Assembly (NCBI RefSeq): GCF_016835505.1
Contig: NC_053155.1
Location: forward strand, 74,660,088-74,724,087
DNA: 64,000 nucleotides
Direction: 5' to 3'
Origin: Polypterus senegalus
Lineage: Eukaryota
Shown: one piece after another, positions 5,149 through 48,275 of the stretch
Layout: each line of letters opens with the position of its first letter
Position numbering within the stretch: the stretch's first letter is position 1
Program-made: the position numbers and the translations under genes
The notes under the pieces: generated by a model
What the model saw: only the letters and a program-made list of their open reading frames with translations
Databases searched by the model: none
Told to the model about the DNA's origin: nothing

Positions 5149-5309
5149 TTAATTAGGGATATTGTCAATGTAAGTGAATCCACTTTCTGGAGCCCTACAC
5201 CCTCATCACTTGCCAAATACCGAGCCCTGAGGTGCAGCATTGAACATTTAGAACCAGAAACAGAAGAATACTTTAACCTTACAAAACTTTTAACACCACA
5301 TGGTAAAAG
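5149..5309 (+). CDS. PARP4: PARP4 exon; encodes LIRDIVNVSESTFWSPTPSSLAKYRALRCSIEHLEPETEEYFNLTKLLTPHGK(S)
   Basis: AG at 5147-5148 and GT at 5310-5311, leaving phase 2. Aligns with human LIRDMVNVCETNLSKPNPPSLAKYRALRCKIEHVEQNTEEF...HHSK. Confidence 0.85.
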
Positions 5310-5504
5310 GTAAACAAGCTTTGTCACATTTCGGACTGTTTTATCCAGATCAAGAATGAATGGGACTGAGGCTCTTGTCCGAGATGCCTCAGAGACAGAA
5401 TTGCCAGATGTATATATTATTTTTTAGATTTTATCTCTCTCTCATTGCTATTAACATAATAATTATTTTTTTGTTGCTTTCGTTTATGAGGATATAGAAT
5501 AGCC

Positions 5505-5826
5505 TCACAGTAAGGAGACTGGGTTTGAATCATGGGTGTTCCCAATGTGGTGTTAGCCTCTTCTCCCCGTGTCCATATAAATTTCCTCTGGGTGCACCAC
5601 CTTCCTCCCACCTTTTAAAGACATGCAGGATAGGTGAATTGGCATTAATAAATTGGCTCTAGTGTGTGTGCGTGTCTGTGTGTGTGTGTTCACCCTGTCA
5701 TGGACTGGTGACCTGTGCAGGTGTTGTTCCTCTCTTGTGCCCAATGTCTGCTTCAGGTTCCAGCTTCCCCACAACCCTGTTCAGGATAAGTGAGCTTGAA
5801 GATGGAAGAATGGATGGATGGATGAA
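5505..5826 (+). mobile_element. SINE-like interspersed repeat (tRNA-related head, conserved ...TCCAAAGACATGCAGG... core, (GGAT)n tail), copy 1, diverged and 5'-truncated
   Basis: It shares the core and the ...gataagtgag...ggatggatggatg 3' end with the copies at 9692-9995 and 55611-55906. Confidence 0.65.
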
Positions 5827-7086
5827 TATGAAATATGGCTTCCTGCATTACTTACTACTGTAAAATATATATATATTTTTTAATAAAACACAAAACATTA
5901 CTTATGTATGTTTAATTTCGTATGCATCCAGAGGCTTGAATTTTTACACACTTGGTGAACAGATGCCACAGTGGCACCTGCACACTTAGCAAAACCCTTT
6001 AATCCCAGCTCTCCTACAGGAAAAGCTAGACCCTGACACACAACATGACACACTGCCCTGCAAAGCAGACCTGGCCAACCAGGCAAGACAGAAGCTATGG
6101 CAAACAGTAATAAAATAAGATATATATTTATTTAATGTTCACAATTTTAAAAGTCTATATCCAGAAAGGAGCAAATACAAAATCCAGTAGAACAAAATAT
6201 AACAGCAGAGATATCCAACTAGACTCGAGCCAAATAGCAAGTCCAAAAAGAGGAAAAGAACATAAGTTCAAAAATGTTGTGTCACCCAGCAATGGAAGGA
6301 CCAAAAGATAAACAGCAGTCAAAATAAGGAAGCTGAAACCGAGAGATAGAAAAGTACCTAGTATTCAGAGTTTAATTGTGATCCAAACTTGAAGTTGAAA
6401 GAATAACTAAGAGATTCAACTGCCAAGAACTTAAAAAAGGACACAAACTAACTTTGTTTCCTTTTCTTTTTGAACAATTCTTAAAAGTCAGACAAGGAAA
6501 TGACCTCAGGGTTCAATCTTTATACCCCGTGAACCCTGACATCACTTTCTTTGTTAACCTTGATGCTACCATTTGCAGCTGCATAGCAACTGCCAAACCA
6601 AACCACTCAAAATGGAATCTCCCAATGGAACCAAAATGAGTCGGGGGAGAACACAAAATAAATAATAAACATTAAAACAATGATGAAAAACAGCCTTCAA
6701 AATTGATTAAACAAACCCCCAAAACATAGAGGGAGAGAAAAATAACGTTGAAACCACTAGTAATCATGACAAAAACAAATAATCAAAATGCATAAAGTGA
6801 GCTTGGCTAAAGTCACTTACAGTGACAGAATCCAAAATACATGAGTAACCTGTTTCTCTCCTGCTCCCCCTTTTATTAATTTGCCCCTGCCATCATGTTG
6901 CTGCTGTTTGATTAATACTCAAGGCAACAAATACAGGTAGGTGCCAATGGCAGTGAAAGACAAAAGGAGTGACTACTGTGGAACCCTAGAGACCTTCTGA
7001 CAGGAATACTCAGAATAAAACTGAAAACCAGTTAAGTATAAGTCCCAAGGCCCACAGAAATCTTGGATTGGAATTATTAGGGAAGA

Positions 7087-7131
7087 TAGATAGATAGATA
7101 GATAGATAGAGAGAGAGATAGATAGATAGAT
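7087..7131. repeat. (GATA)n microsatellite
   Basis: gatagatagatagatagatagatagagagagagatagatagatagata. Confidence 0.95.
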
Positions 7132-7253
7132 ACTTTATTAATCCCAAGGGGAAATCCACATACTCCAGCAGCAGCATACTGATAAAGAACAATATTAAAT
7201 TAAAGAGTGATAAAAATCAAGGTATAACAGACAGACAATAATTTTGTATAATA

Positions 7254-7766
7254 TTAACGTTTACCCCCCGGAGTGGAATTGGACAATGACAGCAGTCTGT
7301 CGCTGAAGCTGCTCATCTGTCTGGAGATGATCCTGTTCAGTGGATGCAGTGGATTTTCCATTATTGACAGGAGTCTGCTCAGTGCCTGTCGCTCTGCCAC
7401 GGATATCAAACTGTCCAGCTCCGTGCCTACAATACAGCCTGCCTTCCTCACCAGTTTCTCCAGGCATGAGGCATCCCTCTTCTTTATGCTGCCTCCCCAA
7501 CACACCACCGCGTAGAAGAGGGCACTCGCCACAACCATCTGATAGAACATCTGCAGCATCTTATTGCAGATGTTGAAGGACGCCAGCCTTCTAAGGAAGT
7601 ATAGTCGGCTCTGTCCTTTCTTACAGAGAGCATCAGTATTGGGAGTCCAGTCCAGTTTATCATCCAGCTGCACTCCTAGGTATTTATAGGTCTGCACCCT
7701 CTGCACACAGTCACCTCTGATGATCACGGGGTCCATGAGGGGTCTGGGCCTCCTAAAATCCACCAC
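7254..7766 (-). mobile_element. LINE (L2-clade-like) RT C-terminal fragment
   Basis: The minus-strand ORF encodes VDFRRPRPLMDPVIIRGDCVQRVQTYKYLGVQLDDKLDW...QSRLYFLRRLASFNICNKMLQMFYQMVVASALFYAVVCWGGSIKK. It is about 90% identical at protein level to the copy at 22486-22935 on the opposite strand. Confidence 0.85.
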
Positions 7767-9392
7767 CAGCTCCTTGGTTTTGCTGGTGTTCAGCTGTAAA
7801 CATGTGCATTTCTGTGAGATGTTTCTCTCATTAAATTAAGCCACTTGCTTAATTGGATCGAATACGCAAGACTAATATTTGTGCACTTACTTGTATGGCT
7901 TAATAAAGTAAATTACATTAGTAGTAATTGTTCTTTTTCATGCCTTTTTAAAGTTTGTTTTAATTTTGCTTGTGTTTGTCCTTTTTTGATATTTCTCTAT
8001 ACACTGTGCTCTGCTATGGATCAGAGTTTTCAAGTAACATTCTGCATAAACGGCAAGTATTACATAAAACAAAACGATTCAAAACATTTGAACATAGTTT
8101 TTAAAAATGTTTCAAAAGTGTCAGGTGTAATGTTTCACATGGGAACAAAGCATCACTTGTTTTATGCATGATTACACTTGCTTTGCTAAGGCATGAAATA
8201 ATCTACACAGGCTTCATGTACAGAGAAGGAACCTTCTATACTTTTATCTTTTAAGGAATGTTTCAGGAGACTTTGGAAAGAATGCAGTAGAAGCCAAGCA
8301 CAGCCTGGTTCCTAGTTTATGAATTAAAAAAAAACATTTAGATGGTGATCCTTCTTTATATAAACTATTGTGCTGCTGTGATACCCCCGTAGCCATTGTT
8401 ACAAGACCTAGTAGTTCATGAATCAAGGTGGACTAGGGCAAGTTAAGAGACAAGAAGAAGTGTTGGTGCAAAAATGCATATTTAATAAAATAAAAGTGCC
8501 CAAGTGCAGTTATAAAATGTCTTCAATAAATAAATACTTCCATAAACACAGTGCTCAATGGTCTTCAATAAATAAATTAAAATGCAGTATCCATCTAGAA
8601 AACTTCCTGTCTCCTCTCCTTTCCACTTGGTTATTAAGCAGAAATGAGACACTACTGAATGTGGTCTCCTCGGCTCTGTAACAGCTAACTCTATTGGTAC
8701 CCGCAAAGAGTCCTCTCGAGCCCGGTTCTCTCTCCCTGCTACCTCCCTCGGTCACCACAGTAACTCTTCACGAGCCCTCAGTCTCCCCTGCTCTATACTG
8801 TTCCTTAGCAGGTTCGACTCATCTATCTAGAACAGCATCTCATGCTCTCCTGGAGACCTTCACCTGACCAGTCCAAACTTCTGAGCGTATTCTTACTCTT
8901 CCTGGTTGTCCCAAAAGTTCTCAGATTTCTTATTTTTACATATTTCTTTTACCCTTTTCTCTATTTACTCAGACCTTTTATAGAATAGTGTAGGCACGGG
9001 GGCTGCTAATGAGAGATGGTTGTGCTGATCTTTGTCTTATGTGCATACTGAATTAGCCAATTCCCTCATTAACGCTAGTCCTTGCCTCATGTATGCTACC
9101 GATATGAATCGCCGCTTTCCAAACTAAAATTTAACACCACTGTTTTCCAACAGAGCCATGAAATGGAGTATTGCAGCGGTATTTATAGCAATACTGTCTT
9201 GTGAATATATTGTTTCAGTTTATTTGCTCTGATTTTCCTCAGGAGTTATTCTGTTGTCTGTTATACTTTTTTTTAATGTGTATCCTTGCAGGCTACCCAG
9301 AACACATAGTGTTCGTAACTGTTGTCTTTGATTGTCTTCAAAGCAATAAAGAAAATGCACTGAAATATTATAATATGTTCCTCCTCTTTCAG

Positions 9393-9530
9393 TTTTCTTC
9401 CAGTGACTCTTCACCGTATTTTCCACGTTAGTAGAGTGGATGAAATGCTTGACTTCCAGAGAAAGCTCGGCAATGTGCAGCTTCTGTTTCATGCATCTTC
9501 CTTGAGCAAATTTGTTGGTATTCTGTCTCG
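9393..9530 (+). CDS. PARP4: PARP4 exon, start of PARP catalytic domain; encodes (S)FLPVTLHRIFHVSRVDEMLDFQRKLGNVQLLFHASSLSKFVGILS(R)
   Basis: AG at 9391-9392 and GT at 9531-9532. The phase-2 junction with the previous exon gives ...HGKSFLPVTLHRIF, matching human ...HHSKSPVDVLQIF...LGNVRPLLHGSPVQNIVGIL. The supplied ORF 9403..9588 begins at a GTG inside this exon. Confidence 0.85.
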
Positions 9531-9691
9531 GTTAGTAGTTATGATAATTTTTTATTGCTGTATACATTTGAATTTGGGATTCCTATAGGCTAGGGTTGCT
9601 AATTTTTATTAATTCTTTTTGTTGTTTTTTTTTTTTTTGTTGTTTTACACAAAAAAGTACAGCTTGAATTAAAAGAAATAAATGAATCATC

Positions 9692-9995
9692 GCAGCACAG
9701 TAAGGAGACCTGGGTTTGCTTCCCAGGTCCTCCCTGCGTGGAGTTTGCATGTTCTCCCCATGTGTGCGTGGATTTCCTCCAGGTGCTCCGGTTTCCTCCT
9801 GCAGTCCAAAGACATGCAGGTTAGGTGCATTGGTGATCCTAAATTGTGTGGGTGTGTGTGTGTCCTGCGGTGGGCTGGCACCCTGCCCGGGATTTGTTCC
9901 TGCCTTGTGCCCTGTGCTGGCTGGGATTGGCTCCAGCAGACCCCCCCGTGACCCTGTGTTAGGATTTAGTGGGTTGGACAATGACTGACTGACTG
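9692..9995 (+). mobile_element. SINE-like interspersed repeat, copy 2
   Basis: cagcacagtaaggagacctgggtttgcttcccaggtcctccctgcgtggagtttgcatgttctcc...gtccaaagacatgcaggttaggtgcattggtgatcctaaattg...ggctccagcagacccccccgtgaccctgtgttaggatttagtgggttggacaatgactgactgactg. The ORFs 9583-9988 on both strands lie inside this repeat and are spurious. Confidence 0.8.
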
Positions 9996-10176
9996 AAATT
10001 AATCATCATGTGAACCTTTTTTTTTTTAATTAACATGTTTTTGTGTAGTGCTTAATAGACCATTTTTTGTTGATTTTGAATTTATTCTCTCAACCTGCTC
10101 TCTATTTTTAGTATACTAATCAAACTGTATATACAGTTTTTTTGAGCTGATCCAGTGTTTTTCTGATTTTTAATAG

Positions 10177-10275
10177 TGGTTTGCTGTTGCCAAAGGTAGC
10201 AGTTGAACAACATGGAATTGCTAGAACAGATGTTGGTAATCTTGGAAGTGGCATATACTTCAGCAATGACATAAG
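10177..10275 (+). CDS. PARP4: PARP4 exon, catalytic domain; encodes (R)GLLLPKVAVEQHGIARTDVGNLGSGIYFSNDI
   Basis: AG at 10175-10176 and GT at 10276-10277. Aligns with human CRGLLLPKVVEDRGVQRTDVGNLGSGIYFSDSLS, including the conserved GSGIYF nicotinamide-stacking Tyr motif. Confidence 0.9.
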
Positions 10276-11857
10276 GTTTGTGGTTATGATATCCTTAAAT
10301 CAATCAATAAATATAAAGTAAGGGTTTAAAAAAATTCAAATAATAAAGCTTACTTGAATACTTGTTATTTAAGCTACTATGATTGTTCTATGACCCTCTT
10401 CTGTGCTAACTTTTGAACTAATCTTGCCAGACAGACTCAAGGAGACTTGTATAAATAATGCTGAAAAATAATAATTGTAATTATCAGTTTATATTAGTTA
10501 TCTAAGCAGTTTATGTGACTAAGGCCGATAAGAAAAATCAATGATTAAAGTTGCTGCTTCATAGAGGATCTAACTCAAAGTTGAATTAGGCATCGACTTG
10601 TGTTAAGAAAGATATACAGAGGTAGGTCATGGTAACATAAAAGTGCAAGGTTAGAGGTGTTCATGAGTATAGGAAAATCAACTAACCTACAAATAACAGA
10701 CATCCTTCCATGTTGATCTGAATGTTGACTCTGATACCACTGAATTAGTAGTTACCTGTGAACTACTCCATCCAGAAAAATCATAAAATGATAGTGTAAA
10801 TCTCAGTTCTTAGATAAATAAACACATAAACTAAGGTAGACATGTTAAACATTATCTGTGTTGGAAAAAAGGTAAGGTTGCCAATTCTGGAAGACTAATG
10901 TAGTACATGTTGTACATTATGTGGCACAAGCGATTGGCTGGTCTTTCATAAAGTTCTTTCTTTGTTGTGCCCAAGTCTAGCTAACATTGAGCATATCAGA
11001 ACATTTAATACATGGCTCATATTTTGGTTTAAGAGAGAGAAGCATTGGTGTATGGGATATTGGGACACATTTTATATTAGATGGCACTTGTAACCTCAAG
11101 ACAGTTTCCATTTGATTCAGAGAGGTTCTGATATATTCTTTCTACTTTCTAATTTTTGTCTCCAGAATTGCCCAAGGAAACATTGCTTATTTAGGATAGG
11201 CTTTTTAATGATTTTGCAAGATTTCTGGCCTATTAGCCAGTTAAATGTGTTAAATATGTTTCGCATAGCATCGCAAGAAAAGAATGTAACTCATAATTGA
11301 CTCTCTAGCTGACCTTATACTGATGCCAAAAGTACTAAAACGAAGACTAATTTTCCTAAATAGACTAAAGCTGAACAGTAAAATTTACAGGCATGCTCGT
11401 AGTAAATCAATACAGGTGAAATCGAAATATAACAAAATAATTTGGCATACATTTTTCTGGCATGGCTTTAGCTGTATTTTTTTGCATTTTATTGTAGCTT
11501 TACAACAGTTTCCCTTGGCTTGTTGTTCTTGATGTTTATTTATTATTATTAAGTTTGCTCTAAATAAAGTACTAGAAACAGATCTCATTAGATTAGATTA
11601 AAAAGAACTTTGTTTGTCCCAAGAGGGAACTTTTGCTTTGTATGGAAGCTCAGTAAATAAATACATGTATAAATATTTCAGTTACAGACAAATACTTCAC
11701 CATAAGAGGCCATTGTTCCATCTAATTTATTAAAATTATTATTTTCAGTAGGAATGCAGGTTATCTTGTAAATCTAAGAGATTTTAATTAGAAAATATTT
11801 ATATTTTTCTCTCATGTATAAACCTCATCTGTAAAATATTTTATTTTTGATTTGCAG

Positions 11858-31132: not shown

Positions 31133-31602
31133 GTAAAGCTAAAGAAAGGTCAGGAATGTATTTTGGTAATGCTTCACTTAACACATGCTGTGACAGTAGC
31201 AGAAAAAGACAAACGAAAATATGTTTTTTTTTTTATATTTATACTACAAGAATAGGATATTCAATGCTGTTCACTTAACTTTTGCAAAAAATCCAGTCAA
31301 GATAATCGTCAAAGTACTACTGTTTACAATACTGCTTTTTAACTGTTTGCATATGTTATTGGTACTCTGTGTGAAGAAAACCTACTAACCTTTAACCAGC
31401 TCCCTGATTTGTTCATAACAATGTCATATACCTCAATTTATTTTTTCATATTTTAAATACTTATTTCATTTTGTCTCTTTGTAAATATTCCTAGTTTTAG
31501 TTTTTATATATTGTATATACTCCAAAACATGGCGAAACATATTATCCCCATGATTAAATTACTTCTACCCATTGATTATAATAGAATATATTTTGAAATA
31601 CT

Positions 31603-33024
31603 ACAGTGCATCTGGAAAGTATTCACAGTACATCACTTTTTCCACATTTTGTTATGTTACAACTTTATTCCAAAATGGATTAAATTCATTTTTTTCCTCA
31701 GAATTCTACAAATAACACCCCATAATGACAACATTAAAAAAGTTTACTTGAGGTTTTTGCAAGTTTATTAAAAATAAAAAAACTGAGAAATCACATGTAC
31801 TGTACATAAGTATTCACAGCCTTTGCTCAATACTTTGTCGATGCACCTTTGGCCGCAATTACGGCCTCAAGTCTTTTTGAATATGATGCCAGAAACTTGG
31901 CACACCTATCCTTGGCCAGTTTCGCCCATTCCTCTTTGCAGCACCTCTTAAGCTCCATCAGGTTGGAGGGGAAGCATTGGTGCACAGCCATTTTAAGATC
32001 TCTCCAGAGATGTTCAGTCAGATTCAAGTCTTGGCTCTGGCTGGGCCACTCAAAGACATTCACAGAGTTGTCCTGAAGCCACTCCTTTGATATCTTGGCT
32101 GTGTGCTTAGGGTCGTTGTCCTGCTGAAAGATGAACCGTCGCCCCAGTCTGAGGTCAAGAGCGCTCTGGAGCAGGTTTTCATCCAGGATGTCTCTGTACA
32201 TTGCTGCAGTCATCTTTCTCTTTATCCTGACTAGTCTCCCAGTTCCTGCTGCTGAAAAACATCCCCACAGCATGATGCTGCCACTACCATGCTTCACTGT
32301 AGGGATGGTATTGGCCTGGTGATGAGCGGTGCCTGGTTTCCTCCAAACGTGACGCCTGGCATTCACACCAAAGAGTTCAATCTTTGTCTCTTCAGACCAG
32401 AGAATTTTGTTTCTCATGGTCTGAGAGTCCTTCAGGTGCCTTTTGGCAAACTCCAGGCAGGCTGCCATGTGCCATTTACTAAGGAGTGGCTTCCGTCTGG
32501 CCACTCTACCATACAGGCCTGATTGGTGGATTGCTGCAGAGATGATTGTCCTTCTGGAAGGTTCTGCTTTCTCCACAGAGGACCTCTGGAGCTCTGACAG
32601 AGTGACCATCGGTTTCTTGGTCACCTCCCTGACTAAGGTCCTTCTCCCCTGATCGCCAGCTCTAGGAAGAGTCCTGATGGTTTCGAACTTCTTCCACTTA
32701 CGGATGATGGAGGCCACTGTGCTCATTGGGACCTTCAAAGCAGCAGAAATATTTCTGTAACCTTCCCCACAAACCTTTGACTTCATGCTTGGTTTGTGCT
32801 CTGACATGAACTGTCAACTGTGGGACCTTATATAGACAGGTGTGTGCCTGTGAATACTTATGTACATGTGATTTCTCAGTTTTTTATATTTTTAATAAAT
32901 TTGGAAAAACCTCAAGCAAACTTTTTTCACTTTGTCATTATGGGGTGTTGTGTGTAGAATTCTGAGTAAAAAAATGAATTTAAAAACTGATGCGCTGTGA
33001 ATACTTTCCGGATGCACTGTATAT
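31603..33024 (-). mobile_element. Tc1/mariner transposon (family B), copy 2, in inverted orientation relative to copy 1
   Basis: The TIRs are CAGTGCATCTGGAAAGTATTCACAG (31604-) and ...GTGAATACTTTCCGGATGCACTGTATATG (-33024). It is more than 90% identical to copy 1 across the TIRs and transposase. Confidence 0.9.
31827..32807 (-). CDS. Tc1-family DD34E transposase ORF of 326 aa, open but with in-frame deletions relative to copy 1
   Basis: The uninterrupted ORF reads MSEHKPSMKSKVCGEGYRNISAALKVPMSTVASIIRKWKKFETIRTLPRAGDQGRRTLVREV...HGSGSIMLWGCF...[12 protein letters not shown]...EWPSQSQDLNLTEHLW.... It lacks the ELSVDLRDRIVSRHKS-like segment and RPSTLS that are present in copy 1. Confidence 0.85.
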   Translation of the reverse strand: MSEHKPSMKSKVCGEGYRNISAALKVPMSTVASIIRKWKKFETIRTLPRAGDQGRRTLVREVTKKPMVTLSELQRSSVEKAEPSRRTIISAAIHQSGLYGRVARRKPLLSKWHMAACLEFAKRHLKDSQTMRNKILWSEETKIELFGVNARRHVWRKPGTAHHQANTIPTVKHGSGSIMLWGCFSAAGTGRLVRIKRKMTAAMYRDILDENLLQSALDLRLGRRFIFQQDNDPKHTAKISKEWLQDNSVNVFEWPSQSQDLNLTEHLWRDLKMAVHQCFPSNLMELKRCCKEEWAKLAKDRCAKFLASYSKRLEAVIAAKGASTKY

Positions 33025-34039
33025 GTGCTAAAGAGACAAATTTCTATTCTGTGGTTAAAAACTATAGTTAACTGCTTAAGTTAAATGTTAAGTTGTTCAG
33101 ACAGTCTTCAGTGAGCTGATATTAAACTGTGACCTTTTAACTGCAAAGATGTTCCATTCATAGAGCAAAAGCAATGGGACTCTGTTTTATATTTTGATTT
33201 ATAATATATATACTAATAAAAGGCAAAGCCCTCACTGACTGACTCACTGACTCATCACTAATTCTCAGAGTTCCCGTGTGGGTAGAAGGCTGAAATTTGG
33301 CAGGCTCATTCCTTACAGCTTACTTACAAAAGTTGGGCAGGTTTCATTTCGAAATTCTATGCGTAATGGTCATAACTGGAAGCTATTTTTCTCCATTTAC
33401 TGTAATGGAGTTGAGCTGGATGGCCGTGGGGGGCTGAGTTTCGTGTGACATCATCACGCCTCCCACGTAATCACGTGAACTGACTATCAACGCAGTACGT
33501 AGAAAACCAGGAAGTGCTCCAAAAAGCGCTAAAGAAAACATGCATTATATAATTGAGAAGGCAGCGAAACAATAAGAAGCGAGCGACTGACATTTACAAC
33601 CATATTCATGAGTGCTGCTACTTCGGAAACAAAGCACGGTGTAAACCTAAAGTTTAAATTAAGTTCATAGACACGCTGCCGCTGGCGTTTGTCATGCCCA
33701 CAGCTAATGCGGGATACAAGTTTAATGAGAGGACGCAGGATATAAACGAGTTTTGATCACTTTGTAATTAAGTTAAAATTGCAGGTTAAAGGCTGTATTT
33801 ATGCAAATTCCGAGAGACTGTGTTTGTGGGGGATTGACAGTTAAGGTGGGTGGGGGAGTCACATCATCATCTCCCCTCCCATTCACCTCATTTGGTGAAG
33901 GACTGTGCTTATGCAGACGAAGATGAGATGGTCAGGGTGGTGTTTGGCAGAAACTGTGCACAGACAAAATGTCAACTCGATCTGAATTGCGCGATCACAT
34001 TCGAAAGCATACATCTTTTCAACTTCTATTTAATCAACA

Positions 34040-34830
34040 CTTAGCATATTCATATGTAAGGCTGCTGCGCAACTCAGCACACCTCCCATGTAATTGACTG
34101 CCTGCCCATATAAGGCCGTTCTTCGCTGTGGCGTGTTCATTCATTTCCTTGCTTTGCCAAAGAAGCAGCCTTTTCATAGGTTCTCCATTGTTTTAGCATA
34201 TGCATAGGTGCAGCTGCTGTGGAAATCAGCACGCCTCCCATATAATTGACTACCTGCCCATATAAGGCCATTCTTCGCTGCGGTGTCTTCATTCGTTTCG
34301 TTGCTTGAACAAGGAAGCAGCGTTCTCACAGCTTCTGCGCTGTTTTATAAACAAACGACATATATTTTTCCTTGCTTCGCCAACGAGGCAACCTTTTTAT
34401 TTAATCCACGGGTTCTGCGCTGTTTTATTGTTCATTTGTTACGATTGTTATACTTATTGTGTACGTATTTTACACTTAGTTTACTGTTCAAGTACCCATT
34501 TCCTTTATTTAATCCGCGGCTTTTCTGCTATTGTTTTGTTCGTTTATTACGTTTATGCTTATTTCATTCACTTTCTTTGCCTGACTGCCTGCCCATAGTA
34601 GGCGCTTAGCAGTTTTTTTGTGAAGCAGCTTTCTCACAGCTTCTGCACTGTTTTATAAATGAACGACATATAAGAAAGTCCTTTTCCTTGCTTCGCCAAC
34701 GAGGCAACCTTTTTATTTAATCCACGGGCTCTGCGCTGTTTTATTGTTCATCTGTTATGATTGTTATAGTTATTGTGTAGATATTTTATACTTTTTTTAC
34801 TGATCAAGTACCCATTCCCTTTATTCTTCC
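34040..34830. repeat. Tandem repeat of about 2.7 units of roughly 270 bp (...cctcccatataattgactacctgcccatataaggcc...ccttgcttcgccaacgaggcaacctttttatttaatccacggg(t/c)tctgcgctgttttattgttcat...)
   Basis: Direct repetition is visible at 34040-34150, 34205-34520 and 34560-34830, with about 90% identity between the second and third units. Confidence 0.85.
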
Positions 34831-34848
34831 AACTGTATCCCTATTAAA

Positions 34849-35622
34849 ATGTCTATTGACGTAATCACCATCAATCAAAGAACTATCACTTACCGAGTGT
34901 TGTCCATGCCCAGAGATGGCGCCTGCCTTTTCCATTCTCTGTGTTACATATTGCATGGCCATATCAGGTTCACTCTTGATATCCAGAGGAACATTGTCTC
35001 TTATGTATTGAATGACTGGGACAGGTTCAAGGTGTGGACTGATGATGGTACAGGAGATAATTATACTGCACAGGAGCACTAGAAGAGTGAAATGCTTAAG
35101 CCCTTCACCTATGGTTCTGCATGTGAGTTGATGGCTGCCGCTGAATTGTTCGGTTGTCGCTTTCAAGTGTACCGAAATGGCCAAATATTTTACACCTTTC
35201 GACAACTGCCAGTGCCTCTTAAACATCTTAGACTCACAGGTGACGATTTCAGTAGTGGACACTTTGATGTTTTTGAATGTTTAAACTCTCAAAAGCTGGA
35301 TGTGAAGTTATCGATGAAACCGGTTGTATGCTTACAACGCTTAACAGATGCCGAATGTCACTTCAACACAAGTCCTACAAATACTGTCGTAATTGAAACA
35401 AACCATGAAACTCAAACGATTATGACAGCAGCAATCCAAGCTGTGAGATTTGAAACAAGATTACTGTTCACATGGCCTACTGTACGTTGCATGCTCAAGA
35501 GTAAGCTCAGCGTACAGCTTGGTCATATTACAACTTGGAGGGCCAAACTCAAAATGTGGTATACAAAGAGATCCTTAACAAATAATTATTGGTATATTTT
35601 CCCTCAGTTTAAAAAGGTTTAA
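34849..35622 (+). CDS. OTU-like cysteine protease ORF (Cys box ...PRDGACLFHSL..., His box ...SSGHFDVF...), interrupted by one in-frame TAG at 35083-35085
   Basis: ORF 34849-35082 and ORF 35092-35622 are in the same frame and separated only by a TAG. The combined translation has OTU hallmarks: DGxCLF(H)SL, then ...YGSACELMAAAELFGCRFQVY (the W/GG..E..A.S...I.V region), then GHFD. Confidence 0.6.
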
Positions 35623-38600
35623 TTTTCTTCTTAATAAAAATTTTAAGGCAGTACTTGCCTGAAGCTGGTATTTTGCTAGTTTTTAATAAGTGTTATTTTG
35701 CATTAAACTTATGTAATTGGTCTGCATGTCTTGGCTGATTGATGTAATAAAGTAATACAAGGCACCTAGTGTGGGCAGATTGCTATTTCTTTCCCGCAGT
35801 ATTAGTGACTAAGACAGGAGTGCCTCCAGTAGTGAGAAACATGGGAAGAAATAGTATGCCATTGATAAATGTCAATAAATAAGATGCATAAGCATCAAGT
35901 GACTAGGGGACACCCATATGCTCAACCCAAAGCTAGCGAGTCCTTATCTAGAGTACTGAGGAGTAACAGGCTATGCAGGGATCACTTATAATCAGTGCTC
36001 AAATGTGTGTATGTTTGGATTGTGTGTGTATGTTCATTTTAAACCACACGAGAGTAGTCCAACCCGTAACAAATATAGTGAGCCTTGCTCACCCTATGAT
36101 ACTACACTAGGTTAAAAAATACAATAAATGATTTCATCACTGAACTCAAGCTCCTGAGCTCCACTATGTGTATCCCTGTTTATTAATTAACTTTACCCTC
36201 TAAATTAGCTTTTTTGTTAATGTTTAAAGCTATATATTGACATCATTATTCACTTGGGAGTATATATCAAGCACCTAGTGTAATATTACTATCCTTTCAT
36301 CTTTCTTGTGGAACTCAGATGTCCTTACTTGAGTCATGGCTCATATCCTATTTGACACAAAATCTTATCTGAAAATGTAATTGACAGACAGCCACATTTT
36401 CTGATTTTTCCTAACTTTTCTAAATAACATGTCCCATGTAATATTATTTTTATTTCTTTATCATTAACATTTCCAAAAACATCTTACTGTCTTCAGAATT
36501 CAGGCAAATTTAACAAATGTGTTAAAGTTAACCGTCTGGAAAACAAACAGCAGTATCAAGTTATGTAACCATTGCTGGTTATTAATATGAATATATCAGG
36601 AGTTCTTAAACATTTTAATTTGATTACCGAAATAAGAAAATCAGTACTATACTGGGACCCAGAAAGAGGACTATTACCATAACGACAGTAAAGCTATACA
36701 TAGAAAAATAACAATGGCCATACAATAAACACAGTAAAGGTTTTTGCTTCCCTTCAAGCTAATTTCTCACATAAGTATTACTAAAAGAAAAAAGTGAAAA
36801 CCAAGCATATTGTTGTTAAATCAATAATTAATATTCAAAACTAACAATGAATTTCAGAGATATATCTTAGCCAGTGTAAATATTTAGTGTGAGCTTTAGT
36901 TAGGCAGAAAGAAAAAAATTCTTCTTTATACCAGGGGCAGCACTAGGTTAAGATGGTTTTCTTAAAGCAAAGTACGAAACTTAACTTAATCTCTCAATGC
37001 ACCAATTAAGCAATAAAATAGTCCAAAAATAATTCATTTATGCCATTTAGTTACCTTGTCTTTGGTAATTTTTTTATATTATTTTTCAGATGAGTTCCAC
37101 CTTTAACAATATCTCTGAATGAGTTGAATTCCACCAAAGTCCACTCTGCAGCCTGTCTTTCCCTTTTGATATTTTCTACTGCTCATGCAGTTCTCAATGG
37201 TCCAACAAACACATCCTTTACACTATCAGTAGATTGACATTAATTGAACCACTTTTAAAAAGTGTTAAGAGAAGAAATTTGTCCTTTGTTAAGCATGTTA
37301 TACTTAACGCAAAATCTTCATTACATGTGTGTTACAGATTTGGATACAATGGATACCACAAGATAATTTTTTCAACCCACACAATAGCTCAGTTTGGTGA
37401 AAAAAAACATCTGGCAACTCTTGGCCAGAGTCCCTTCCCTTCCCTGATTCTTTGGAATGACTAGAAAGAGATCTCTCAATTAAAATTTTTAAATGTCCTC
37501 TCATAGAATTTATTCTAGTTTAGTATGGGCCAAGCACACCACAATTCAACTAAAAATGATTAATATATCACATACATCTTGTTTATGTGTAAAATGTACG
37601 CAGGGAAAGATTTAACCTGGAAGTGTTGTCATCGAGAGTCTACATTGCTAGGCTGTATTTTTTACGAATGCCCTAAATCTAAATCATTTTGGGCAGAGAG
37701 TTTTGCAAATTTCTTGGGTTATCTTGGACATTCACTCCTAATGCATTGATGGCAATATACTATGAAAAATCAGCTGTAATATCCTATCAGCTGGTAGTAT
37801 TTCAATCTGCCTTCTGTAACTCAGTGGAAAAGCTATGTATTATTTTATCTTAAATTCGAAAAAATCTCTTTACGGGGATTTGTTCTGAGCCTTTTCAAAA
37901 CATAACATGAACTCATAAATATAATATTTATAATCCTAAACTATGCATGTTGTGTCTGTGCTCACGTTTTGAGCTCTGTTTGCTTTTTTATCATATATTA
38001 AGCACTGTTGATGGAAAGAAGTAGATTACTGTTCGTAATGGATGAATGCTGAATGTTAGGATATGACATACACAAGCTCACATATTCAGTATATGTGCTA
38101 ATAGCATGGCAACAACATGCATATTTGTAAAATATGAAACTTACAAATGGTGCTGGTAATAACACTACTGTTAGAATCCTTCAAACCCTTAAAAATAAAT
38201 CAAGGACAAAATATCAAAATCAATTAACACCTGACATGTACCACATAAGATCAAACATGATGTTGTTAATATAATGGTCAATTTTGGTCCAGTGAACACA
38301 ACTGACCAAACAAACTTTAAAGCAAAGCTGAAACAATGAAATAATTAATTTCTAAATGTAACCTTCAGAATTCTGGTAGGTGGAATCTTCTCAGTTTGTT
38401 GAGTAGAAAAGCCAACATACAGTATTATTGCAATCCCAATAGTCTATTTTGGTCATTTTAACACCTGACATGAAGTACAAAATACAAAGCATTAACTATG
38501 AGCTCCACAAGCTACAGGTATGGATACTGTTTTGGAGAAAATAAATCATATATACCTTCTTATTTTTTAACTGTATGCATAGACCTTTCTTATGTATATA

Positions 38601-38641: not shown

Positions 38642-38825
38642 GCTTGCATGTTAGTATTTTGCCCAGCGTTTGACTCCAACAGCTTGCCTGAAGGTAGTGA
38701 AGTTGTGATCCTCTTGGACAATTCCAATTCCATGAAAGGGTCAAAGCTGCAGGAGGCCAAACAAATTGCAGTCCTGGCCTTGGAGGCACTTGAATGCAAG
38801 ACTAATGTTATCATGTTTGGAACAG
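38642..38825 (+). CDS. PARP4: PARP4 exon, start of VWA domain with MIDAS-like DxSxS motif; encodes ACMLVFCPAFDSNSLPEGSEVVILLDNSNSMKGSKLQEAKQIAVLALEALECKTNVIMFGT(G)
   Basis: AG at 38640-38641 and GT at 38826-38827, leaving phase 1. Aligns with human ACMLVFQPDLDVDLPDLASESEVIICLDCSSSMEGVTFLQAKQIALHALSLVGEKQKVNIIQFGTG. Confidence 0.9.
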
Positions 38826-39717
38826 GTTTGTAGTGCTTTTTTACCTTCAAAGTTTCACATACAATACACATGTTTGAGATTAATACGACAAACTATATTA
38901 AAATTATAAGATTCCATCTAACAGCTGTGCTCAAATACTCCTCCTGCTGAACAAAAGGGAGCAAAATTGGGAAATAATTAATATAATTAAAATTAATATA
39001 ATCATTCAAAAATGCTTACATATCTGAAAAGTTAACGACTGTTCACTTAATTTTAATTTTTGTTTTCTTATTTTAAGCAAGATAAATCATTTTCTTAAGA
39101 CAGCAGAGCGGTAGGTAGTACTGCTGCCTAATGGTTTAATGTTAACTTTTCCCCCAGACATCATGTGCCTGTTAGCTTAATTTGAAGTTCAAAACAGGCC
39201 CTGTGTGAATGTGGATGTATCCATGAGTGAGCCTTACAATGAACCAATGCCTTGTCCAGGAATTTTTGCTACCTTGTACGCTGTGCTGCTGGGATACACA
39301 TTGGCCCCACGTGACCTTGCTTTGGATTTAGTGAGTCTGAGGCTTCTAAAATGAGCACAATCAACTGGCATTCTAACCTTGTGGCATAAGTTATTCAAAT
39401 AGATTGTTCATTCAGCAATACTGGGAATTATTTTGAATAAATCCAGTGAAGGATTACGGATTGCTGTGGTCCCAAGGCTGGTTTATAATAATCAAACCTT
39501 TTATTCTAAAATGCTTTAAGCAGGGGCTTGTAAACATAAGACCCAGGACATGTTGAAATATTGAATTTGTGTACCTCAGTGTGTATAACCTGCACATTTT
39601 GATAAAAGAGAAAGAAAAAACAATACCATTCTTTTATATAGTCTCAAATGTTAATGGATGAATGTTAACTAAGAAAAATCATTTTACCCTAATGCTGCTG
39701 TTTTGCCCTTTCAACAG

Positions 39718-46588: not shown

Positions 46589-48275
46589 AGAAGCAACATA
46601 AGCAGTAGTTTTACATTCCTATAGTAGATAACAACGAAAACCATGCAACTGGAATCTCTGTTGATAGAGACAGACTTAGATACATCATAGCATTACAGGA
46701 TATGTATGGACATGTAACAGTCCGGGTCAGCTCCATGGCTGCAGCTGGGAGCCTTTCCAACCCGAAACTGTTGATAGTCACAGACCAAGATGAGCTGGGC
46801 AGATGAAAACACATACTTACAGCAAAGGGTAGATGTAAAGGTGACAAGTTCTTTTATTAAAATCAATCCAAAAATCAGTGTTCTAAAGTGCAGTGCATTG
46901 TCAATAAAGACAATTGAAAGTGGAGGTTAAACAGCTCAATAAATAATTCATTAAAATGAGGTTAAAATCGCAGCAGGAAGCTGTCCCATAAAAGTCACGA
47001 GCCCTAATGCATCCTTCTAAAACCAACGTCTCCTGTGCTTACCCCGCATGGGATCTTGCAGCAGAGGAGATGCCTGACTAACAGGTGCAGCCAACTTTTC
47101 CTCACAGGCTTGGTTCCCGGCAGCCATCATAGGCTCTTGGCAGGGTGCCACGCTGAGCCTCGCCTTGTTCCTTCTTCTCCTCCTGCCAGTCCTTGGTTGA
47201 ATGCAGGAGTCCTCTAAGAGCATCAGGTCACTAAAGCCACCTCAAAAAGTGTTTAGCTGGAGTGACCCTCTTCAGCCACAGAGCGTCTGCCCTACACTTC
47301 TCCTAGGGGCTGTCCTCCCGACTGCCTGCCTCCTCTACTCTGCACCCTGGCATCTCCCAATCCTGCTGCCTCTTTTACTTTCAATTCCTTTTTAACCTCT
47401 GTCTTGCTCTTTCTGTTCTTTCTTTATATTCCTATTTCTGTTTCTCTGGCTGCCATGCTGGCTCCTCTTATATTGGCTTAATTTGGGTGTAGTTGTGATA
47501 TACCGCTACGTCCAGTGTACCATGATATACCCGACTGATCCGCTCACCTTTGCACATGTATGCGCAATCAGCCAAGCACCCCAATCAACCCCTGAGGAAG
47601 GCACACTTACATACACCCACACCCTATTGGAGATGGCACATAATGGGACACGATTATTTATTTAAACGCCTACACAAAAAACAGACCACTTATCACAGGA
47701 TGTCACAGAATGCTTGATTTTCTGCAAAGCTTTGTCATATTTTGGGAGTGAATGGCAGACAGTGTCTTTGGCTCACATACAGTACTTCAGACAGCATGAT
47801 AGGAATCTTGCCAGGAAGGTTACAAATCCAACAGAGGTCTTTACTACTTTAATATTACATGTTTTTGGCATTTCCATCACAGCTCTGTCCTTCTCTCAAT
47901 TTGCTTAAGGAATGTGAGCTGACAGAATAGGATATGAGAGTGCATTTCAGAGACCTTGAATTAAAGCATTTCAAAGCTCAGCCTGAGCTCCATTAGGACA
48001 AGAAGCTCGGGATCATGATTGCGACCTGCCCTCCTGTATTCCTACAGACTTCAGTGAGGATGTTGTCTGCTTTTTGCTCTACACCTCTGATATCTGTCAG
48101 TGGGTTTTACTGTTTTCTCTGAAATACACCAAATGGCAGTTTCTGCCATCTTCTCCTTTCCTGTGGTGCCTAGCATACTGTCAAATAGCTGTTATGCTCA
48201 TCCAGCTTACATTGTAAGAATGTGTCTTTTACTGAAGAGTTTGGCTTTCATGAGCTTGTACTGTATATCACATCT

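Follow-up and report, generated by a model that had tools for sequence, protein, structure and literature searches.

A reading frame without introns that carries the signature blocks of an OTU-type cysteine protease lies inside an apparent intron of the bichir Polypterus senegalus, and the questions raised by this locus are where such a frame came from and whether it still encodes a protein. We addressed them within a window of 64,000 nucleotides (the whole stretch of DNA that was analysed, to which all positions refer), starting from a sequence-only reading that had taken the frame for a recent insertion and had listed Helitron Rep-Hel-OTU proteins and viral polyproteins among its possible origins. 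As argued below, positions 33211-35679 (plus strand) very probably hold a degenerate member of a P. senegalus Helitron family that is canonical (HLE1-type) and non-autonomous.

The two open reading frames from which the analysis departs (34849-35082, 77 amino acids; 35092-35622, 176 amino acids) lie in a common frame with one TAG between them (35083-35085), and their conceptual translation (34849-35622) holds the DGACLFHSL, YGSACELMAAAELFGCRFQVY and SSGHFDVF blocks, so both the joined frame and the three OTU signatures stand as the sequence-only reading had described them. Along the plus strand the coding part is composed as follows:

34849-35082, plus strand: N-terminal part of the OTU reading frame, including the Cys box DGACLFHS (Cys26 codon at 34924-34926).
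35083-35085, plus strand: TAG nonsense codon, private to the window copy, at a family Tyr codon (Tyr in 21 of 22 sister copies, Asn in 1 of 22).
35086-35418, plus strand: OTU reading frame continued, with the YGSACEL...FQVY block, the His box SSGHFDV (His138 codon at 35260-35262, Asp140 codon at 35266-35268) and the linker up to ...ETNHETQT.
35417-35453, plus strand: 1-nt deletion (about 35417-35419), junction peptide DYDSSNPSCEI in the +2 frame and family stop TGA (35451-35453).
35447-35585, plus strand: last ~45 codons of a Helitron PIF1-type helicase, in two frames (DLKQDYCSHGLLYVACSRVSSAYSLVILQLGG and GQTQNVVYKEILNK, the latter followed by the stop) with the switch at about 35541 and the stop TAA at 35583-35585.

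The in-frame TAG was correctly recorded at the outset as the single one, but a second lesion had been missed. The sister copies P0001 and P0003 end in ...NHETQTDYDSSNPSCEI followed by a stop (P0002 has the same peptide up to ...SCE), and frame translation of the window places the same ...NHETQTDYDSSNPSCEI ending, with its stop at 35451-35453, in the +2 frame; the window copy must therefore have lost one nucleotide near 35417-35419. Given the TAG and this deletion, the 258-aa read-through protein that had been put forward as the product is not a real one: the family ORF has 201 amino acids, and the window copy is frameshifted with respect to it. Compared with the family consensus it differs at 16 of 201 residues (the TAG included), in addition to the frameshift, and a copy burdened with a nonsense codon, a frameshift and 15 other amino-acid changes encodes nothing functional. 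Likewise, the domain-less tail of about 110 residues that had been noted after the His box consists in fact of a linker of ~55 residues, predicted to be disordered (pLDDT <50 in the model of P0002), and of the out-of-frame remnant of the helicase C terminus.

The assignment of the ORF to the OTU-type cysteine proteases is confirmed at the family level. Taken alone, the window copy matches the Pfam OTU profile (PF02338) with an E-value of 0.025 and 15.5 bits, which falls below the curated gathering score of 23.3 bits, whereas the Polypterus family consensus (25.6 bits) and the nearest non-Polypterus relatives (P0015, 35.9 bits; P0016, 43.3 bits) all exceed this cut-off. The profile search proposed by the sequence-only reading is thus passed by the family consensus, while the single copy alone is marginal. 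When the window copy was compared with the sequences of solved structures (PDB), all five matches were OTU domains (OTUD3, E 1.4e-3; OTUD5, two sequences; the OTU of a viral polymerase (L) protein; OTU1). An exhaustive HMMER search, for which a small profile was made from the in-frame pieces and relatives, returned 1,226 representatives at E<=1e-3; the OTU profile was matched in 23 of 30 long relatives, and in an alignment of 50 of the 1,226 F28 never varies, while conservation is 90% or higher at D23, G24, C26, L27, G137 and H138. The window copy keeps D23, G24, C26, H138 and D140, and its Cys box (D-G-x-C-L-F) precedes its His box (G-H-x-D).

For the fold, the AlphaFold2 model of the sister copy P0002 (84% identical) was used in place of the window copy. 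The model is confident over the OTU domain (pLDDT 91-98), and the best 50 Foldseek matches in the PDB were all OTU domains, headed by OTUD3 (4bou; E 2e-8, TM 0.78, 2.2 A). The family consensus above the Pfam cut-off, the conserved catalytic columns and the OTU fold of P0002 together bear out the original call of an OTU-type cysteine protease, probably a deubiquitinase in the autonomous ancestor. No transposon OTU has been assayed for activity as yet (PMC9741609), and the consensus domain (~150 residues, with a confident model) would provide a handy substrate for the first biochemistry on such a protein.

The ORF belongs to a repeat that is scattered over the P. senegalus genome in many copies. 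Chimeric P. senegalus gene models accounted for 33 of the 35 database matches to the ORF (mostly 80-92% identical), and two more were found separately, with a total for the species of at least 35 gene-model fragments carrying the ORF, on at least 15 chromosomes, to judge by the 15 different lengths of their contigs. The matches also mark the window itself as bichir DNA. These models bear the names of unrelated host genes (ANX10, ARTN, MCE1 and others); the element was, in other words, built wrongly as coding exons into at least 35 GenBank gene models of P. senegalus, and should be masked.

The identity of the repeat emerges from its nearest relatives outside Polypterus, OTUs of 44-53% identity, every one of which is linked to a Helitron. 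An ORF with the Helitron_like_N domain (PF14214, E 5.5e-60) comes directly after the OTU gene of contig L001, and contig L002 shows the same OTU-then-Rep layout (Helitron_like_N, E 4.7e-10) up to where the contig edge ends it. The frog Eleutherodactylus coqui (L003) has a single unbroken OTU-Rep ORF of 1,030 amino acids with helicase ORFs further downstream. Between its OTU and the bichir consensus the identity amounts to 53% (tblastn E 4e-48), and residues 22-166 of the OTU-Rep ORF match window positions 34846-35277 directly (48% identity, tblastn E 1e-37). The start-codon context of the OTU (AAAATGTCTATTGA) is the same in bichir and frog, and in the frog element the stretch from the 5' end to the OTU ORF contains tandem arrays with units of 147 and 116 nt. 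Two aphid proteins, P0126 and P0174, hold OTU and Helitron_like_N within one polypeptide, and downstream of the gene for P0174 (locus L125) lies one for a PIF1 helicase. With the OTU of the relatives lying upstream of Rep or fused to it, Helitron Rep-Hel-OTU proves to be the correct one of the origins that had been listed for this ORF.

The window retains a trace of the same architecture. Searched by tblastn against the whole 64-kb window, residues 312-354 of the 356-residue frog helicase matched the remnant downstream of the OTU ORF (E 1.25e-5), as did residues 733-775 of the 775-residue aphid helicase (E 2e-6); other Rep or Hel segments had no match anywhere in the 64 kb, and the 40-aa remnant alone had no match in Pfam. 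The absence of Rep and the presence of only the last ~45 helicase codons make this copy non-autonomous: about 1,600 codons of Rep-Hel have been lost by internal deletion, with the OTU ORF retained whole. The junction peptide is common to P0001, P0002 and P0003, which lie on three different chromosomes, and one deletion junction at three chromosomal sites means that the deletion derivative itself was amplified, that is, that it constitutes a non-autonomous family. Among the Polypterus sequences examined there was no autonomous copy with OTU, Rep and Hel. This nature of the element, an internal-deletion derivative unable to move autonomously, had gone unrecognised in the sequence-only reading.

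The exact termini were placed by cross-species comparison with the frog and aphid relatives, of which the former offers clear 5' and 3' ends and the latter a clear 3' end. The element and its non-coding parts are as follows:

33211-35679, plus strand: whole non-autonomous Helitron copy, ~2.47 kb (5' boundary about +/-3 nt).
33211-33313, plus strand: left end, with a TA-rich start (TACTAATAAAAGGCAAAGCCC), an CTCACTGACTGAC... run and the motif TAGAAGGCTGAAATTTGGCAGGCTCATTCCT (33283-33313), collinear with the frog element L003.
34041-34825, plus strand: repeats in the 5' non-coding region, namely a 152-nt unit present twice (34041-34347) and a pair of ~200 nt (34314-34509 and 34622-34825, 88% identical).
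35646-35679, plus strand: right end, with the palindrome AGGCA..TGCCT (35646-35660), then GAAGCTGGTATTTTGCTAG; CTAG at 35676-35679, host T at 35680.

The left end of the frog element, from its position 6637, reads A/TCTATATAAAGACGAAAGCCCTCACTGAC... (in a fuller reading A/TCTATATAAAGACGAAAGCCCTCACTGACTCACTGAC...GTAGAAACATGAATTTTGGCA; here and below the slash marks the boundary with the flank), and the window is collinear with it from about 33211 (TACTAATAAAAGGCAAAGCCCTCACTGACTGAC...GGGTAGAAGGCTGAAATTTGGCA). Local alignment of this left end scored 52, whereas none of 500 shuffles exceeded 29, and gave a unique best site in the window. Nucleotides 1-17 of L001 are identical to window positions 33284-33300, and the 19-mer AAAGCCCTCACTGACTGAC is present once where 0.02 occurrences are expected. 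The 5' dinucleotides differ, being TC in the frog (A/TCTATATAAAG...) and TA in the window as aligned (A/TACTAATAAAAG..., with the boundary known to about +/-3 nt). A 16-mer of the left-end motif, AAAGCCCTCACTGACT, was also found at 120 loci in metagenome contigs, none of which had extended family features, and we regard these as chance occurrences.

At the other extremity the window reads ...GAAGCTGGTATTTTGCTAG/T, with CTAG 94 nt past the helicase stop, and the right ends of the relatives share the form ...CGGGTAWWTCAGCTAG/T (frog ...GCCGGGTATATCAGCTAG/T, aphid ...GACGGGTAATTCAGCTAG/T). The right end was scored by an edit-distance scan with the terminal consensus of the two species (CGGGTAWWTCAGCTAGT); on the plus strand of the window, the closest match to this consensus has an edit distance of 3 and ends at 35680. 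Such a match is found in 7 of 2,000 random 700-nt sequences (p ~0.004) but in ~70% of random 64-kb sequences (both strands), and the support for the right end is therefore positional. Plain local alignment gave no significant match in the window for the last 45 nt of the frog element (score 16, which 222 of 500 shuffles attained), and the IUPAC pattern GAAGCYGGKTATWTYNGCTAGT, with 3 mismatches allowed, had no match in the window, because the window end differs from it by indels. Near 47519 the terminal consensus also has a match on the minus strand; it lacks CTAG and was discarded as chance. The 3' hairpin of the window has a 5-bp stem (AGGCA/TGCCT, 35646-35660) and is weak (z -0.78 against shuffles); that of the frog is weak as well (z -0.04) and that of the aphid modest (z -1.81).

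The bases flanking the element are A (33210) and T (35680), which gives ATATATA/TTTTTAAT as the reconstructed empty site. No target-site duplication was found at the flanks (the longest word common to both is a non-adjacent 7-mer), nor was there a poly-A tail near the 3' end (no A-run >5) or any terminal or subterminal inverted repeat of the element. Within its non-coding parts, the ORFs of the 5' region had no Pfam match above the curated cut-off, the antisense ORF at 34804-35262 had none either (best 16 bits, E 0.01), and no Rfam family matched the element. No second copy was found in the 64-kb window.

The CpG content separates the element from its surroundings. The observed/expected ratio is 0.72 inside 33211-35679 and 0.21 outside; it amounts to 0.53 in the ORF and 0.80 in 33200-34848, as against 0.21 in both flanks and 0.27 in the neighbouring Tc1 ORF. 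The contrast between a CpG-rich ORF and a CpG-poor intron is thereby upheld, with the count in the ORF corrected from about 15 to 17. The higher CpG content shows that the insertion postdates both the intron around it and the Tc1 element nearby, as had been proposed, but it is not brand new. That Tc1 element, upstream at 31827-32807 on the minus strand, encodes a transposase of the Tc1/Sleeping-Beauty type; the element described here is an inserted mobile element of its own, neither a host exon nor part of this Tc1, as had also been supposed. The next plus-strand exon downstream matches residues 870-920 of human PARP4 (E 6e-5), which is consistent with the PARP4 intron that had been named as the setting, and the element sits in it in sense orientation. 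This orientation within a host intron also explains how gene predictors came to exonise the sister copies.

The class to which the Helitron belongs was weighed between the canonical HLE1 type and Helentron/Helitron2 (HLE2). OTU domains were first described in Helentrons (PMC4067079), and the 5' dinucleotide of the window is not the canonical TC, both of which would suit an HLE2 origin. The frog element, however, is bounded by A/TC...CTAG/T and the aphid element ends in CTAG/T; the helicase ORF of frog, aphid and window remnant alike stops right after ...NVVYKEIL (the last helicase motif), with no AP-endonuclease domain after the helicase in the frog and aphid relatives and the same stop in the window; the insertion site is A/T and not T/T; inverted repeats, terminal or subterminal, are lacking; and the Rep of L001 matches Helitron_like_N over its full length (203 bits). 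From the ends of the relatives, the missing AP endonuclease, the A/T site and the absence of terminal inverted repeats, we place the family with HLE1 and consider an HLE2 origin very unlikely.

A further question concerns the retention of the OTU ORF in the deletion derivatives, which could mean that they were kept as a functional gene family, with a stand-alone OTU protein from which the transposon family or the host would benefit. In several sister copies (e.g., P0002) the 201-aa ORF is indeed still intact, Cys, His and Asp included, and the start context shared by bichir and frog points in the same direction. On the other hand, the window copy has both a stop and a frameshift, and the catalytic Cys26 position is replaced in 11 of 17 sampled copies (Tyr in 9, Ser in 1, Ile in 1; Cys in the remaining 6). 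A Tyr variant common to 9 of the 17 implies that a large subfamily multiplied although its active site was dead, and this speaks against selection for the OTU of the deletion derivatives. The sample, drawn from gene models, is moreover skewed towards copies that retain the ORF. We thus judge such a functional family highly improbable, and read the retained ORF as part of a decaying non-autonomous Helitron.

Viral OTUs deserve mention, since nairovirus vOTUs appear among the sequence and fold matches and the N-terminal OTUs of baculovirus VP80 reach 32-42% identity with the Polypterus consensus (on a par with the OTUs of aphid Helitrons), so that the locus could be pictured as an endogenous viral element, whether its source was the polyprotein of an RNA virus or a large DNA virus (for instance a VP80-type protein of a baculovirus). 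The element holds no other viral coding sequence, the window has no match to the C-terminal region of P87/VP80, and the nearest relatives (those with 44-53% identity) are all Helitron-linked. The helicase tail and the Helitron termini exclude the viral-polyprotein origin that the sequence-only reading had kept as an alternative, and leave endogenous viral elements at large extremely improbable. Bringing these two themes together, one may speculate that the N-terminal OTU of VP80 and the OTU of the HLE1 lineage form one clade and that the Cys-bearing subfamily of the OTU-only derivative persists because it still expresses a deubiquitinase on its own, to the benefit, in trans, of the transposon or the host; we hold this joint proposition to be unlikely. 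A single VP80/Helitron OTU clade, if real, would imply gene exchange between insect DNA viruses and Helitrons.

A processed retrocopy or stray exon of a host OTUD deubiquitinase gene, which the intron-less ORF and the host-type OTUD3, OTUD5 and OTUD1 among the best solved-structure relatives might evoke and which (as a poly-A retrocopy) the sequence-only reading had set against its own interpretation, has practically no standing beside an identity of ~16-19% to OTUD proteins (versus 44-53% to Helitron-linked OTUs), the missing poly-A tail and target-site duplication, the Helitron helicase tail and termini that flank the ORF, and dozens of dispersed copies.

Helitrons move by rolling-circle transposition in which the left and right ends are recognised, and their derivatives can be mobilised in trans. 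Returning to the non-autonomous HLE1-type family, we propose the following history. The autonomous ancestor would have encoded one long protein in which an N-terminal OTU protease and a linker preceded the HUH Rep endonuclease and the PIF1-type helicase; the OTU may have served to shield the transposase by deubiquitination or to modify host chromatin or repair factors. An internal deletion of ~1,600 codons would then have joined the OTU-plus-linker to the last ~45 helicase codons while both terminal sequences were kept. To go by Helitron biology, this derivative would have been copied in trans by the Rep-Hel of autonomous relatives, and would have spread by rolling-circle ('peel-and-paste') transposition via its left and right terminal sequences, inserting between A and T without target-site duplication. 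The copy in the PARP4 intron has since acquired its TAG, its frameshift and its 15 other amino-acid changes. The biological importance of one more non-autonomous Helitron family is limited; what it adds is a vertebrate OTU-bearing canonical (HLE1) Helitron to a group recognised only in 2024.

Among known systems, the host proteins OTUD3, OTUD5 and OTUD1 and the nairovirus vOTU have the OTU fold and the Cys/His/Asp triad in common with the bichir ORF, but they are only ~12-20% identical to it and are cellular or RNA-virus proteins, not transposon-borne ones. Helentrons (HLE2) come nearer. OTU ORFs have been reported from them (Poulter 2003; Kapitonov & Jurka 2007, as cited in PMC4067079 and PMC9741609), and, as far as these citing accounts go, they are likewise rolling-circle elements with an OTU-like cysteine protease in which all catalytic residues are conserved; they differ by their AP endonuclease, T/T site and subterminal inverted repeats, none of which occurs in the bichir family.

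The host genome itself harbours full copies of Heli1Xen1-b, a horizontally transferred Helitron family of bichir and toad (Mob DNA 2025, PMC12001565) with canonical TC...CTAG ends and a TA-rich (TATATAAA-like) left end, in whose description an OTU domain is not mentioned. Identity with Heli1Xen1 was considered and rejected, as neither the element nor L001, L002, L003 or L125 contains its hallmark right-end hairpin (CCCGTTA...TAACGGG); the bichir OTU element and Heli1Xen1-b are probably different families. In the searchable literature we found no description of the bichir family or of the left end that it shares with the frog element (AAAGCCCTCACTGACT...).

The closest counterparts are the OTU-bearing HLE1 Helitrons. 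The HELIANO survey (Nucleic Acids Res 2024, PMC11417382) recorded OTU domains upstream of Rep-Hel in HLE1 as well as in HLE2, and found the OTUs of the two to be phylogenetically distinct. As in the relatives described here, the OTU of these elements lies N-terminal to or upstream of Rep-Hel, the Rep is of the Helitron_like_N type and the helicase of the PIF1 type; the ends are shared (TC...CTAG with the frog relative, CTAG with the aphid relative and the window), and so are the A/T site, the lack of a target-site duplication and the habit of non-autonomous derivatives to keep the ends of the autonomous element. The window copy departs from them in its aligned 5' dinucleotide (TA) and in having lost Rep and nearly all of Hel, yet keeping the whole OTU ORF. 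Since OTU-carrying HLE1 and HLE2 elements have already been described, the type of element is a known one, and the bichir family is a new member of that group.

The catalytic cysteine of the OTU domain (Cys26), whose codon lies at 34924-34926 in the window, is unevenly conserved among the sister copies of the bichir Helitron: residue 26 is a tyrosine in 9 of the 17 copies sampled and a cysteine in six, with the window copy among the cysteine-bearing ones. The family thus comprises two or more subfamilies, and one of these multiplied with an inactive OTU. Pieces of the element's OTU ORF are annotated as coding exons in at least 35 Polypterus senegalus GenBank gene models (named ANX10, ARTN, MCE1, SCFD2, TFF3, PEX16 and others; proteins P0001-P0014, P0017-P0035, P0037 and P0039). 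These models are annotation chimeras, created because the Helitron repeat was left unmasked.

Two annotated features of the window lie on either side of the Helitron, and a third set belongs to a related element in the frog Eleutherodactylus coqui (contig L003):

~31600-33021, minus-strand transposase ORF at 31827-32807: Tc1/Sleeping-Beauty-type element
~38690-38833, plus strand: exon, start of a vWA domain (VVILLDNSNSMKGSKL...)
L003 (CM069425.1) ~5158-7660: paired Helitron left ends, head-to-head around 6636

The Tc1/Sleeping-Beauty-type element, whose terminal sequence at 33000-33019 is ...cagtgcatccggaaagtatt (reverse complement), encodes an uninterrupted transposase of 326 aa with HTH_Tnp_Tc3_2, HTH_SB and DDE_3 domains. 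Its CpG o/e is 0.27, which implies a greater age or heavier methylation than that of the adjoining Helitron. On the opposite side, the 500-600 bp directly 3' of the Helitron (35680-36300) are still richer in GC (0.36-0.39) and in CpGs, of which they retain a few, than the intron past ~36200; they also carry a sequence that is directly repeated, near 35759 as AAGGCACCTAGTGT and near 36270 as AAGCACCTAGTGT. This segment may represent a separate, older repeat, into or next to which the Helitron inserted. Further downstream, the top match of the vWA exon is human PARP4 (residues 870-920, E 6e-5), which supports, at the level of sequence similarity, PARP4 as the host gene.

In the frog contig, both left ends are followed by arrays (8.9 and 6.3 copies) of a 147-nt unit that includes the GAAATTTGGCA motif, whereas the window holds a single copy of that unit. 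The OTU-Rep linker of the autonomous relatives (P0015, P0016, P0036 and the L003 ORF at 8744-11833) contains a basic patch, KRKRTKRKGRFSN.PRLKQLR, a putative nuclear localisation signal, followed by tandem 'AVAKYTQxNPEVxRA' repeats; in the window linker only faint traces of patch and repeats are left (...RLTDAECHFNTSP...).

Among 30 long relatives of the bichir Helitron OTU, 13 have an OTU at the N-terminus and a PF07267 (P87/VP80) region at the C-terminus (among them P0099, P0129, P0137, P0139, P0141, P0142, P0146 and P0152). The two whose source was checked, P0146 and P0142, are baculovirus VP80 capsid proteins (from LdMNPV and EupsNPV). We found no paper in the searchable literature that brings 'vp80' and 'OTU' together. 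Viruses and Helitrons may have exchanged genes here. The VP80 OTUs share 32-42% identity with the bichir Helitron OTU consensus, which puts them at the same distance from it as the aphid Helitron OTUs.
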